Virus record (IMG/VR): IMGVR_UViG_3300020735_000006
Location: 1-35,949 of that record
Source: a virus
Lineage: Duplodnaviria > Heunggongvirae > Uroviricota > Caudoviricetes
Length of the DNA: 35,949 nucleotides
Strand: one strand, 5' to 3'
Shown here: piece by piece, positions 23,982-32,479 of the stretch
Layout: each line of letters opens with the position of its first letter
Position numbering within the stretch: the first letter of the stretch is position 1
Notes under the pieces: model-generated
Database searches by the model: none
Told to the model about the DNA's origin: nothing
What the model saw: the letters and a program-made list of their open reading frames with translations, nothing else
Position numbers and translations under genes: made by a program

Positions 23982-24431
23982 ATGTCAATTACATTAGAAA
24001 ACTTAAAATCGGCATTTGCAGGTGAGTCGCAAGCATTTACCAAGTATATGTATTTTGCTAAAATCGCACGTGCAGAAGGTAATGAAGATATTGCTCTACA
24101 TTTTGAACATACTGCCGGTCAAGAACTATTACATGCACACGGACATTTAGAATTATTAGTAAGCAAGCCAACTACAGCTGAATGTTTGCAAATGGCAATT
24201 GATGGCGAAACGGAAGAGTTTACTCATATGTACCCAACAATGCTTAAAGAAGCTGTTGAAGAAGGTAATATTGTTGCTGCACTCGAAGCACAAACACAAA
24301 TTGACGAAAGCAAAGAACACGCCGACGAATTTACCACTATCCTTGCCAAAGCAGAAAAGCGTTTTGCTGCATTAGCAAAAGTTGAGAAGCGTCATGCAGA
24401 AGCGTATCAATCAAAATTGGAGACACTATAA
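23982..24431 (+). CDS. rbr: Rubrerythrin (ferritin-like domain only)
   Basis: NLKSAFAGESQAFTKYMYFAKIA, ExxH di-iron motifs (ELLH, EKRH), AIDGETEEFTHMYP. Confidence 0.9.
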   Translation: MSITLENLKSAFAGESQAFTKYMYFAKIARAEGNEDIALHFEHTAGQELLHAHGHLELLVSKPTTAECLQMAIDGETEEFTHMYPTMLKEAVEEGNIVAALEAQTQIDESKEHADEFTTILAKAEKRFAALAKVEKRHAEAYQSKLETL

Positions 24432-24559
24432 TGGAACATGTTTGTATTGTATGTGGACACGTTCACAATGAAGCAGTAGAAGGCGTATGGGACGAATTAC
24501 TAGAGAATTTTGAGTGCCCAGAGTGTGGTTGCGGTAAAGAAGATTACGTAGTACAATAA
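24431..24559 (+). CDS. Rubredoxin, 42 aa (not in ORF track)
   Basis: MEHVCIVCGHVH...WDELLENFECPECGCGKEDY, two CxxCG motifs; TAATG coupling to rbr. Confidence 0.88.
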   Translation: MEHVCIVCGHVHNEAVEGVWDELLENFECPECGCGKEDYVVQ

Positions 24560-24681: not shown

Positions 24682-25311
24682 ATGAAATCTATCTTTATAC
24701 TGTACCTTCCAGGATATGCAGGTAATTTTTTAACCAGACTATTCAGCCTAGGAGCAGATACAGTACCGCATCTACCTAAAGATGAACTAACTAAAGCAGT
24801 AGATTTGGGTTGCCTCCCAGATATGGCAAACAAAATACAGTGGTATCGATTCTCAAAAGTAAATCAAACATTTGAAAATTGGCAAGAGTTTCATCGAAGT
24901 TGGCCCGATTTTTATGATAGAGAATTATTCGAAGAGTACATACAACTACTAGATCCTACTCCGGGTAATATTGTTTATAGCATACACCCCCATGAATTTG
25001 ATATATTTTTGAAAGATATAACATCAATTGAGGATCGGCAGTTATTTTATGTCGAATTGGACCTAACAAAATATGCAGAATGGTTAGCTACAGCTACACT
25101 TAAACTTGGGTTTGTTTGTAGACCAAATGAAGTTGCACAGCTAAATCATTTTTGTAAATTTGACATGGAACCGATTAGTTTAACTTCTATGTTAGACTCT
25201 GAAGAATCATTTATAGAAGAATATCATAGGGTATGTGATCTAATGTCACTTGCTAAAGTTACTAGTAGTGCAGTAGAATTATATCGAGATTGGACAAGTA
25301 TTAGAGGTTGA
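24682..25311 (+). CDS. Hypothetical accessory protein (YxxGxxGxFL family)
   Basis: FILYLPGYAGNFL N-terminus like ORF 12015. Confidence 0.6.
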   Translation: MKSIFILYLPGYAGNFLTRLFSLGADTVPHLPKDELTKAVDLGCLPDMANKIQWYRFSKVNQTFENWQEFHRSWPDFYDRELFEEYIQLLDPTPGNIVYSIHPHEFDIFLKDITSIEDRQLFYVELDLTKYAEWLATATLKLGFVCRPNEVAQLNHFCKFDMEPISLTSMLDSEESFIEEYHRVCDLMSLAKVTSSAVELYRDWTSIRG

Positions 25312-25336
25312 CAGATAAATAACTTTAATGTACAAT
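25308..25336 (+). promoter_or_regulatory. Sigma70 promoter
   Basis: TTGACA-17 nt-TACAAT. Confidence 0.8.
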
Positions 25337-25400
25337 CAGTGCATTAGTTAACAAAGTTTTACAAAAAGGATAAATAAATTACTGACAGCCAAATTGGTGG

Positions 25401-25429
25401 TTGACAGTAAAAGATCAATAAGCTACAAT
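25401..25429 (+). promoter_or_regulatory. Sigma70 promoter of leader peptide
   Basis: TTGACA-17 nt-TACAAT; ATG 10 nt after the -10 box. Confidence 0.8.
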
Positions 25430-25438
25430 AGATATATT

Positions 25439-25594
25439 ATGAAATTACAGAATTTTAAACAGTCCGTACAACATACGCAACCAGCAGGGATGTCAGCCTA
25501 TTGGTCAGTGAATTGTGCGCCGGCGATGTTTAATAGTAATTCAGATCGCGGCACAGAGATTAGAAGTAGGGTCCACGGAGTTATGGTTAGTTAA
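25439..25594 (+). CDS. Putative attenuator leader peptide, 51 aa, contains all 20 amino acids
   Basis: Stop codon lies at apex of antiterminator hairpin; near-leaderless start. Confidence 0.65.
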   Translation: MKLQNFKQSVQHTQPAGMSAYWSVNCAPAMFNSNSDRGTEIRSRVHGVMVS

Positions 25595-25629
25595 GTAAAA
25601 ACAAATCATAAAGAACTTTAAGGACCCTA
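25567..25629 (+). promoter_or_regulatory. Antiterminator hairpin
   Basis: TAGGGTCC(25567-74)/GGACCCTA(25622-29) plus inner TTATGGTT/AATCATAA; overlaps terminator 5' arm. Confidence 0.7.
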
Positions 25630-25654
25630 GGATATAAAAACCCTAGGGTTTTTT
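25624..25654 (+). terminator. Attenuator terminator
   Basis: ACCCTAGG/CCTAGGGT stem followed by T6. Confidence 0.85.
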
Positions 25655-25671
25655 GTTATTAGGAACAGTAT

Positions 25672-25827
25672 ATGAATGTAAAGAACATTAGAGAGTTTAC
25701 TGGCTTGGTTCTTTCAGCAGAGCAGAAGGTTGAACTGATGGAAGCCAAAGTTAGGCGAGCCGAAGCACATATTAAGAGTTTAGCAGAACAAGCTAAACTA
25801 CTTGAAAAAGCTCGAGCTCGTAGATAA
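25672..25827 (+). CDS. Small basic coiled-coil hypothetical protein, 51 aa (not in ORF track)
   Basis: AGGA RBS; MNVKNIREFTGLVLSAEQKVELMEAKVRRAEAHIKSLAEQAKLLEKARARR. Confidence 0.55.
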   Translation: MNVKNIREFTGLVLSAEQKVELMEAKVRRAEAHIKSLAEQAKLLEKARARR

Positions 25828-25929
25828 GAAGTAAGTGTTAACAGGAAACGAGATCCTATGCTACACTATAAACAAGCATAAATGGGCGGAACTAAGGATG
25901 GAGCACCTCGTGTGGTGTGAAAAATCTAG

Positions 25930-26048
25930 TTATAGTAAAGTACTTTGGATGACCATCTGGCGAGAGAAGCAGGCCGCATCGACCGCGGCTGACAAGTACA
26001 TAACGCACGAAAAAGTGTAAAATGTATACCCAGAGTACTTTACTATAA
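25930..26048 (+). repeat. Inverted-repeat-boxed RNA cassette, divergent outlier (element 0)
   Basis: TTATAGTAAAGTACTTTGG/CCAGAGTACTTTACTATAA, 19 bp with one G-U. Confidence 0.7.
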
Positions 26049-26053
26049 ACAAC

Positions 26054-26138
26054 GCACAAGCGGCTAAGTTGGAGAGTGGCGGCTGACTGTAAATCAGTTC
26101 CTTAGGGTGAATAGGTTCGAATCCTATCTTGTGCACCA
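26054..26138 (+). tRNA. tRNA-Tyr(GTA)
   Basis: Loop CTGTAAA, variable arm, CCA. Confidence 0.9.
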
Positions 26139-26160: not shown

Positions 26161-26234
26161 GCGGGTATGGTGTAATGGTAACCCGAGACCTTGCCAAGGT
26201 TTAGTTGAGAGTTCAATTCTCTCTACCCGCTCCA
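26161..26234 (+). tRNA. tRNA-Gly(GCC)
   Basis: GCGGGTA acceptor, loop TTGCCAA, TCCA end. Confidence 0.92.
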
Positions 26235-26250
26235 ACTTTAATAAAATATA

Positions 26251-27108
26251 ATGCCGAGTAGATTACTCTTTGTTGGATGTAACAAAATAATAGATTCAGT
26301 TATTAGTTTACAATTTGACAAATACCTAACACCTAAACCTAGTAAGACTATAATTTACCTAGGATCGCGTGAACATGGGGTACGTAACGATATTGATTTG
26401 CTTGGGTTATACCAACAGTACAACATAGATACCACAAATTTTAGTGTAGTACACGATTTAGATTTATTAGATACATACAAGAATATACGTCTAATTAATT
26501 TATTTCAACCATGGATTTTACAACAACTTTTAAAATTGATGGCAGTTGACACATGCAACGATAATAAAATATTAATTCAAGACAGTGATATTATATTGTT
26601 GAAACCTTATGTTTATTTTGAAAACAATATACCTGTACCATTTAAATTTGAGAATATGTCACACTCTGCAGGATATTACAAATACGTTGAAACATTTACT
26701 GGACAGTTAAGACAAACCGAAGATTGTTTTGTTACAGACTTTATGCCGTTTCGTAAAAGCGACTGGCAATCTCTAAAACAACACATTGAGCAATCATACA
26801 GAACAGATTGGTTAACAGCAATAACAACTCAATTTAAAAAGGATCACCCATATCCAAAAGGTAATATAGCGTTTAGTGAGTATGAATTGTTAGGTAATTG
26901 GTTGTTAATCAATTATCCCGATCTTAAAACAGTACAACAGTATCATTATCCGTTAACAGCAGAACGTACTAGATTTATAAAGAACAAAAATTTTGAGTTA
27001 AGTGATTTTAAAAAAGAATCATTTGACAGTATTGCTATAAAACTATATAATGATGACATAAGACTTAGTCTTGATGATGTAGATTATATAGTAAAGTATT
27101 TTACATGA
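26251..27108 (+). CDS. Glycosyltransferase-like protein (GT-A DxD; DUF6492-like)
   Basis: WILQQLLKL, ILIQDSDIILLKP, FSEYELLGNW. Confidence 0.6.
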   Translation: MPSRLLFVGCNKIIDSVISLQFDKYLTPKPSKTIIYLGSREHGVRNDIDLLGLYQQYNIDTTNFSVVHDLDLLDTYKNIRLINLFQPWILQQLLKLMAVDTCNDNKILIQDSDIILLKPYVYFENNIPVPFKFENMSHSAGYYKYVETFTGQLRQTEDCFVTDFMPFRKSDWQSLKQHIEQSYRTDWLTAITTQFKKDHPYPKGNIAFSEYELLGNWLLINYPDLKTVQQYHYPLTAERTRFIKNKNFELSDFKKESFDSIAIKLYNDDIRLSLDDVDYIVKYFT

Positions 27109-32244: not shown

Positions 32245-32273
32245 TTGTCCGTTAATTCCCAATATTGTATAAT
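32245..32273 (+). promoter_or_regulatory. Sigma70 promoter P1 of repeat array
   Basis: TTGTCC-17 nt-TATAAT. Confidence 0.75.
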
Positions 32274-32294: not shown

Positions 32295-32309
32295 GCTCAT
32301 TAACAATTT
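32295..32309 (+). promoter_or_regulatory. rrn-type boxA-like antitermination site 1
   Basis: GCTCATTAACAATTT versus E. coli rrn GCTCTTTAACAATTT. Confidence 0.6.
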
Positions 32310-32464: not shown

Positions 32465-32479
32465 GTTCATTAACAATTT
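32465..32479 (+). promoter_or_regulatory. boxA-like site 2
   Basis: GTTCATTAACAATTT at similar distance from promoter as site 1. Confidence 0.6.

Follow-up and report, generated by a model that had tools for sequence, protein, structure and literature searches.

The stretch of DNA analyzed here (hereafter the window; 35,949 nt, IMG/VR record IMGVR_UViG_3300020735_000006) is the first 36 kb of a 108-kb viral contig from an uncultured freshwater phage. CheckV estimates the contig to be 29% complete, which points to a jumbo phage. The window has a GC content of 38%, and its part between 23.7 and 34.2 kb is a tRNA island in which small open reading frames (ORFs), auxiliary metabolic genes and numerous sigma70-type consensus promoters are interspersed. 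The subject of this analysis is a compact unit in this island that consists of tandem promoters, a leader ORF (ORF1), a predicted antiterminator hairpin and an intrinsic terminator; we refer to the last two as the switch. Three tRNA genes lie 5' of the switch and 25 lie 3' of it (23 found by ARAGORN and two by Rfam only); a preliminary description of the locus that was made from the sequence alone had likewise counted 25 tRNAs after the terminator. The features of the unit are as follows.

25308–25336, plus strand: promoter P1, sigma70-type, TTGACA-17 nt-TACAAT, 11/12 match, conserved in relatives
25368–25380, plus strand: block GGATAAATAAATT between P1 and P2, invariant in 14 aligned loci
25401–25429, plus strand: promoter P2, TTGACA (25401–25406), 17 nt, TACAAT (25424–25429), 11/12 match
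25439–25594, plus strand: ORF1, leader ORF of 51 codons with stop codon TAA at 25592–25594, no Shine-Dalgarno site
25480–25505, plus strand: hairpin H1 inside ORF1, predicted in 14 of 16 homologues
25567–25629, plus strand: predicted antiterminator hairpin, –22 kcal/mol, z = –5 versus shuffled sequences
25625–25654, plus strand: intrinsic terminator with a 7-bp stem and U6 tail, –11 kcal/mol

The 3' end of ORF1 runs into the long hairpin. Its outer stem pairs TAGGGTCC (25567–25574) with GGACCCTA (25622–25629), the middle stem pairs GGAGU with ACUUU, and the inner stem pairs TTATGGTT (25581–25588) with AATCATAA (25604–25611). The ORF1 stop codon is located in the apical part of this structure. 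The terminator is formed by CCCTAGG (25625–25631) and CCTAGGG (25642–25648), which are separated by a 10-nt A-rich loop and followed by T6 at 25649–25654; an automated terminator scan overlooked it solely because of its 8-nt loop limit. Positions 25625–25629 (CCCUA) belong both to the 3' arm of the hairpin and to the 5' arm of the terminator. Hence, the two structures are mutually exclusive. The preliminary description had already placed the stop codon within a long antiterminator that excludes a terminator, and this arrangement stands with slightly corrected coordinates (the terminator occupies 25625–25654 and not 25624–25654).

We compared the unit with its relatives in public data. The region has no blastn match among GenBank phages, and the closest GenBank phages are distant cyanophage matches to a neighboring protein only. 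The ORF1 peptide has 22 close metagenomic relatives (72–87% identity over the aligned part), and a profile search extended the family to 56 protein clusters at E < 0.001 (60 at E up to 1). Gene calls in the family are 46–86 aa long, or 46–54 aa when counted from the conserved Met (39 aligned). Four more IMG/VR lineages carry an ORF1 of 38–49 aa, and the family range of ORF1 is 38–54 codons. The samples come from lakes and other fresh water, and some of the contigs are up to 380 kb long. A peptide scan of IMG/VR with the window's own ORF1 peptide found no relatives, and the 209-aa ORF upstream of the unit retrieved one distant locus only. A scan with a degenerate DNA pattern returned 28 loci, among which the real ones, judged by a hidden Markov model (HMM), were those already known. 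A 15-mer scan of IMG/VR gave 63 matches, seven of them real and one new (L067); the same scan of bacterial genomes gave chance matches only, lacking a promoter or terminator signature, and no clue to the host. The long ‘homologues’ P0024–P0026 were judged spurious, since they are repeat proteins for which weak per-repeat similarity had been summed. At the DNA level we compared 18 distinct loci: 12 close ones (the window included), L021, the distant loci L048–L051, and L067. The geometry of hairpin arms and terminator was tabulated in full for 17 of the 18.

The switch is conserved in all 17 tabulated loci. The A arm of the outer stem (GGGUYY) starts 10–23 nt 5' of the ORF1 stop codon and the complementary A' arm (RRACCC) starts 28–32 nt 3' of it, so that each hairpin carries the stop codon within its 5' half. 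A' and the 5' arm of the terminator have CCC or CCCUA in common in every locus. The outer stem is paired in 101 of 102 cells and shows covariation, with C–G, U·G and U–A at position 5 and a change from C–G to U–A at position 6. The inner stem differs among lineages in sequence and register, and some stem is always present. Terminator stems (6–7 bp, GC-rich) come in four variants, namely CCCUAGG/CCUAGGG, CCCGGA/UCCGGG, CCCUGG/CCAGGG and CCCUGGA/UCCAGGG, each perfectly paired and each followed by U6. Predicted stabilities range from –16 to –25 kcal/mol for the hairpin (z from –4 to –6) and from –9 to –12 kcal/mol for the terminator. RNAalifold applied to the whole transcript recovered the outer antiterminator stem and mis-paired the U-tract through gapped terminator stems, which is why we tabulated the arms directly. 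Chance is far from sufficient to account for the combination of hairpin and terminator, as all homologues examined retain it and show covariation.

The layout at the start of ORF1 is conserved as well. Its ATG (25439) lies 9 nt past the –10 element of P2, without a Shine-Dalgarno site and with no room for one, which agrees with the consensus promoter and near-leaderless ORF of the preliminary description. Across loci P2 follows the pattern GGTTGACA, 17–18 nt, TAYAAT, and the distance from the end of the –10 element to the ATG is 7–10 nt in 18 of 18 loci, the distant ones included. In distant gene calls the in-frame translation 5' of the conserved Met reads Y-N (TAYAAT), matching the predicted leaderless layout. 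Conservation is highest between P2 and the ATG, with 91% mean pairwise identity (11 loci). Transcription from P2 would start near 25436 and yield a leader of ~3 nt. The 209-aa ORF upstream ends in a stop codon that overlaps the –35 element of P1, and transcripts from this promoter would carry a leader of ~96 nt. The invariant block GGATAAATAAATT resembles the spacers of the neighboring promoters, and a similar string occurs in the P2 spacer of L021 and in the P1 spacer of L006 and L014. It may be a decayed third promoter.

With moderate confidence, we interpret the unit, which heads the phage tRNA island, as a ribosome-mediated transcription attenuator. The sequence contains the structural features expected of such an element: a maintained leader ORF, an intrinsic terminator, an antiterminator that excludes it, and overlap between ORF and structure. 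RNA from P2, the second of two tandem sigma70-type promoters, would start ~3 nt before the AUG of a leaderless leader ORF of 38–54 codons. The last codons of this ORF would double as the 5' arm of the antiterminator, the 3' arm of which holds the CCC(UA) needed by the terminator stem. If the RNA carries no ribosome, or if the first ribosome falls behind or stalls 5' of about codon 38, the antiterminator would form first and the polymerase would read through into ORF2 (the next gene), a structured RNA and the first tRNAs. A ribosome that reaches the stop codon in step with the polymerase would unwind and occupy the 5' arm; the 3' arm would then be free, the terminator would form, and transcription would end at the U6 tract.

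The direction in which the switch is predicted to work follows from its geometry. Transcription produces the antiterminator before the terminator, and the antiterminator has about twice the stability of the terminator stem, so untranslated RNA should read through. The standard ribosome footprint of 28 nt spans about –15 to +12 nt around a stop codon. A ribosome at the ORF1 stop codon would cover the inner 5' arm and sit in the would-be loop, while A', at +28 to +32, would stay free; hence, coupled translation should favor termination, and stalled or absent ribosomes should favor read-through. The stop codon and A' remain 28–32 nt apart even in loci in which the interval between A and the stop codon changed from 23 to 10 nt, and this near-constancy is consistent with attenuator logic. 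ORF1 contains no run of codons for a single amino acid: none occurs in tandem more than once, and the commonest residue, Ser (7/51), is scattered. An amino-acid-specific attenuator of the trp/his/phe type was rejected on this ground. The sensed signal would most simply be the overall rate of leader translation, in which case the element would report general translational capacity, tRNA supply included. The preliminary description had proposed that stalling at any codon leads to read-through. Its direction agrees with the geometry of the 17 tabulated loci, but selection for every amino acid is unsupported.

We also asked what kind of constraint acts on ORF1. The frame is open in every homologue, that is, in all 18 DNA loci and in the protein clusters of the family. 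Indels among 14 close loci are all multiples of three. No in-frame stop occurs in frame 0, versus 7–13 alignment columns with stops in the other frames, and synonymous changes make up 32% in frame 0 versus 17–19% in the other frames. In the close group dN is 0.17, dS is 0.27 and pN/pS is 0.68, while the neighboring ORF2 has a dS of 1.19. Variable sites at the three codon positions number 19/22/30 in ORF1 versus 28/26/49 in ORF2. The low dS and the 19/22/30 distribution indicate nucleotide-level constraint with only weak codon periodicity. The codon-adaptation value of ORF1 (0.536) is below that of 99% of 51-codon windows in the long ORFs of the phage, and the rare codons TCC, ACG, GGG, GCG, AGG and GTC are frequent in it. 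AlphaFold2, run with a 39-sequence alignment, predicted no secondary structure (pLDDT 58, pTM 0.13), and neither ORF1 nor the unit matched a family in Pfam, PHROGs, Rfam or the ESM Atlas.

The coding signals could also belong to an ordinary small unit, in which ORF1 encodes a functional, perhaps disordered peptide and a leaky terminator sets the ORF1:ORF2 ratio. The long hairpin would then be a 3' stabilizer or an RNase III-type processing site with no role in sensing translation. The excess of synonymous change in frame 0 fits this, as does the conservation of the peptide motifs AYWS, DRGTEI and SRVREGWDD over many members and the joint occurrence of ORF1 and ORF2 in nearly all loci. With ~20 bp and internal loops, the hairpin also has the size of phage RNase III sites such as those of T7, and processing helices have been reported at other places in the tRNA island. 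However, the motifs are conserved in nucleotides as well: L021 and L009 differ at 2 of 54 nt, while ORF2 of the same two loci has diverged to ~50% amino-acid identity. Moreover, L050, L051 and L067 keep the RNA switch but carry a different C-terminal half of ORF1, in which DRGTEI and REGWDD have been lost. The lack of a predicted fold, the atypical codon usage and a dN/dS of ~0.6 do not suit a functional peptide either. An ordinary unit would leave unexplained why the stop codon lies in the 5' arm and the 3' arm overlaps the terminator in every locus, and why L067 has retained the switch although it lacks ORF2. We consider this explanation unlikely, though far from negligible. Judged from the alignments, the peptide is not the conserved part of the unit; the RNA switch is its solid part.

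Nucleotide-level constraint extends along the whole transcript and could also reflect a trans-acting, possibly dual-function small RNA (sRNA) of ~215 nt that is transcribed from strong promoters and ends at the terminator, with single-stranded blocks as seeds and the ORF as a secondary feature. The 3' end consists of a hairpin, an A/U-rich stretch, a terminator and a U-tail, which is the typical layout of Hfq-type sRNAs, and non-coding RNA cassettes abound in the tRNA island. There is also a precedent in the attenuator-derived rnTrpL/peTrpL system, where the leader peptide is functional (PMC6614838, PMC7968998). However, an sRNA alone does not explain why every lineage, despite complete sequence turnover, has an uninterrupted frame that begins at a 5'-terminal AUG and reaches into the hairpin. 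No target complementary to the invariant 12-mer of ORF1 (GCCTATTGGTCA, see below) was found within the available 108 kb, and the transcript has no Rfam match. We therefore regard an sRNA as a very improbable substitute for the attenuator. A role as sRNA would nevertheless be compatible with attenuation and would explain the nucleotide conservation beyond the switch.

ORF1 also contains the predicted hairpin H1. The 12-mer GCCTATTGGTCA (25496–25507), invariant in the family and in all cases 57 nt from the AUG at its start, includes the 3' arm of H1, whereas the 5' arm of H1 is variable. That H1 acts as an RNA polymerase pause hairpin is speculation.

Downstream of the terminator, the first genes and elements are as follows.

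25661–25827, plus strand: Shine-Dalgarno sequence AGGAA and ORF2, a predicted coiled-coil protein of 51 aa; no promoter between the terminator and ORF2
25838–25875, plus strand: element GGRAACGAGRTCC ... CACT.TAAA, 9/12 promoter match in the window
25880–26050, plus strand: structured RNA of ~170 nt with a long clamp stem, identified from the alignment; first RNA gene after the switch
26054–26138, plus strand: tRNA-Tyr (ARAGORN)
26161–26234, plus strand: tRNA-Gly (ARAGORN)

The ORF2 reading frame itself spans 25672–25827. It lies 3' of ORF1 in all relatives except L067 and shows normal coding divergence; its homologues are 50–58 aa long, rich in Ala, Lys and Glu, and share the motif EQK.AL.EAK.ARAEA. 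We found no family match for ORF2, and a homology search with it gave two matches only. The element at 25838–25875 is conserved 5' of the structured RNA in all relatives, L067 included. It has no sigma70-type match at this position in 7 of 10 relatives, and TTGACA stands at the right distance from it in some lineages only. Its core CACTATAAA resembles the –10 elements of T4 late-type promoters. The element may be a weak, alternative or phage-specific promoter (P3), or the 5' leader of the structured RNA. The structured RNA starts near GGGCGGA, and its clamp stem, TATAGTAAAGTACTTTGG with CCAGAGTACTTTACTATA, covaries between lineages. Homologues of this RNA are present in L003, L006–L010, L013, L015, L021 and L067; it has no Rfam match. 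In L067, where ORF2 is missing, the switch is followed directly by the 25838-type element, the structured RNA and four tRNAs, and no promoter-like site above 9/12 occurs until after the last of these tRNAs. Both this arrangement and an ORF2 that has a Shine-Dalgarno site but no promoter speak for downstream genes that depend on read-through.

According to the preliminary description, the unit gates the whole tRNA array. This part of it is not supported. A 12/12 consensus promoter is located at 27023, 5' of tRNA-Trp, and more strong promoters lie at 32245, 32418 and 34911. Between the terminator and the first tRNA there are also a protein ORF and a conserved promoter-like element. With consensus promoters inside the array and three tRNAs upstream of the switch, the unit cannot gate all 25 tRNAs. 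Read-through would feed at most ORF2, the structured RNA, tRNA-Tyr, tRNA-Gly and a DUF6492 ORF.

The synteny of the unit is conserved: in relatives it always lies inside a phage tRNA array or at its start. The gene 5' of P1 varies among relatives L003–L015 while the block of promoter, ORF1 and switch stays fixed. These upstream genes encode a methyltransferase, parts of SSF or DctP/TctC transporters, TauD, an aldolase, rubrerythrin/rubredoxin and DUF559. The pattern resembles cassette shuffling around conserved promoter and terminator anchors. In the window, a rubrerythrin gene (149 aa) followed by a 42-aa rubredoxin gene occupies 23982–24559, between tRNA-Leu genes, and the pair is also present in L007. 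At positions 1034–1474 of L049, directly 5' of the P2 promoter, ARAGORN calls a putative permuted transfer-messenger RNA (tmRNA).

Several points weigh against the attenuator reading. A 3-nt leader may be translated inefficiently in some hosts. With no codon runs and no structure that would enforce termination when translation is absent, the default state of the switch would be ON. The whole of ORF1 is conserved in sequence, as exemplified by the invariant blocks GCCTATTGGTCA and GATCGCGGCACAGAGATTA; this exceeds what a simple attenuator would call for and points to extra RNA or peptide functions. Finally, the element at 25838–25875 is possibly an independent promoter, in which case the switch would control only ORF2.

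The full claim of the preliminary description amounts to a leader under selection for containing each of the 20 amino acids, such that the entire phage tRNA pool is turned on when any host tRNA is lost. A recount confirmed that ORF1 encodes each of the 20 amino acids within its first 41 codons and uses 35 different codons among its 51. However, such coverage is not rare. All 20 amino acids are found in 3.2% of 51-aa windows from the long ORFs of the phage (the comparison that the preliminary description had called for), in 2.6% of stop-free windows in any frame, and in 3.0% of independent, identically distributed (iid) draws. Among the 73 small ORFs of 45–60 aa in the genome one has all 20, and this is ORF1; about two are expected by chance.

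The family gives a similar picture. The full set of 20 amino acids is present in 31 of 44 peptides; 12 others contain 19 and one contains 18. Of the 12, ten are without Cys, one is without Phe and one without Leu; in the member with 18, that of L050, neither Cys nor Phe occurs. The 38-aa peptide of L051 does have all 20, versus an iid expectation of 0.6%, and His and Lys shift position between clades and are never lost. These observations speak for selected coverage, as does a geometry that gives read-through on any upstream stall. However, independent resampling of alignment columns alone yields all 20 in 43.5% of peptides, 19 in 41.6%, and 18 or fewer in 15%. The observed 70%, with a single member at 18 or fewer, would be a significant excess if the sequences were independent, but family members are phylogenetically non-independent. 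The family consensus itself has all 20, which means that much of the coverage is inherited; the baseline for a single ancestor is 3–6%. Cys is absent from 11 peptides, Phe from two and Leu from one, though the tRNA set of the phage includes tRNA-Cys, tRNA-Phe and two tRNA-Leu genes. Moreover, any ORF senses its own codons with no special design, and the promoters at 27023, 32245, 32418 and 34911, together with the three upstream tRNAs, indicate that the array is not a single gated operon. Of the two properties that the preliminary description expected homologues to retain while their sequence diverges, the position of the stop codon is kept, whereas 20-amino-acid coverage is kept in only 31 of 44, and a pan-amino-acid design is not supported by the ~3% baseline and the 13 members that lack at least one residue. 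We consider the full claim very unlikely.

In a more limited form, selection would keep the leader rich in amino-acid types as a general sensor of tRNA supply, which we think improbable. The lead ribosome would then stall when nearly any host tRNA is lost or cleaved, or when translation slows in general, and the antiterminator could form. If true, selected coverage would be a homeostatic counter-measure against tRNA-targeting defenses that raises transcription of phage RNA and tRNAs.

Several other explanations were tried and rejected. A T-box riboswitch is not supported, as RF00230 gave no match in 761 nt even at E up to 10, and a riboswitch aptamer would leave the maintenance of ORF1 unexplained. 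An rrn-type boxA leader was discarded, since the conserved AAACTTTAAGGA shares only CTTTAA with the boxA consensus (GCTCTTTAACAA-like). ORF1 has no hydrophobic segment, which argues against a type I toxin or signal peptide, and only ORFs of 22–27 aa exist in other frames or on the other strand, which argues against an overlapping gene. Elsewhere in the island, boxA-like CTCATTAACAATTT occurs at 32296–32309 and 32466–32479, behind promoters of the form TTGTCC-17 nt-TATAAT; these sites differ from the AAACTTTAAGGA block.

Phage tRNA islands have been linked to evasion of tRNA-cleaving defenses (PMC10264068, PMC11464382). Our literature search found nothing on expression control of phage tRNA islands and no attenuator before phage tRNA genes. 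If the attenuator reading is right, the transcription of a small ORF, a structured RNA and tRNAs is tied to the state of translation through a conserved switch. The attenuator prediction is simple to test by reporter fusions.

In classical attenuators (trpL, hisL, pheL, thrL, ilvL, pyrL), too, a short translated ORF is followed by an intrinsic terminator ahead of the regulated genes and by a competing hairpin with which the terminator cannot coexist, and the position of the ribosome selects the structure, as proposed here. The pheL leaders are described in PMC3082878. The pyrL leader of pyrBI has 44 codons, close to the 51 codons of ORF1. In contrast to these systems, the unit described here has no regulatory codon run and is probably leaderless, and the genes it would regulate are a phage small ORF, a structured RNA and tRNAs rather than a biosynthetic operon. 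The number of RNA segments also differs: there are three here and four in classical attenuators, which implies that the untranslated state would be read-through. In the ermC, mef/mel and msrD leaders a stalled ribosome blocks the terminator, and impaired translation induces the downstream genes (PMC4335068, PMC10314930). These leaders depend on short specific arrest peptides and a drug, whereas the phage leader is longer and has no known arrest motif or ligand. The rnTrpL sRNA and peTrpL peptide of Sinorhizobium show that a terminated leader can be a conserved small RNA with an ORF (PMC6614838, PMC7968998). RNAs of this type can act in trans; such a role would explain the conservation beyond the switch, though no trans target or peptide function is known here.

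Another related system is the mycobacterial leaderless polycysteine small ORF (sORF), the first cistron of its operon, where ribosome pausing remodels the downstream RNA and thereby controls the genes that follow (Canestrari et al., bioRxiv 10.1101/834739). As proposed for the phage unit, RNA structure is there under control of the ribosome. However, the mycobacterial sORFs contain Cys runs, sense cysteine and act at the level of translation by unmasking a ribosome-binding site, whereas ORF1 has no such run and its hairpin competes with a terminator. Overall, we suggest that the apparently leaderless, long-leader form found in many uncultured freshwater phages would, if confirmed as an attenuator, widen the known range of ribosome-mediated attenuation.

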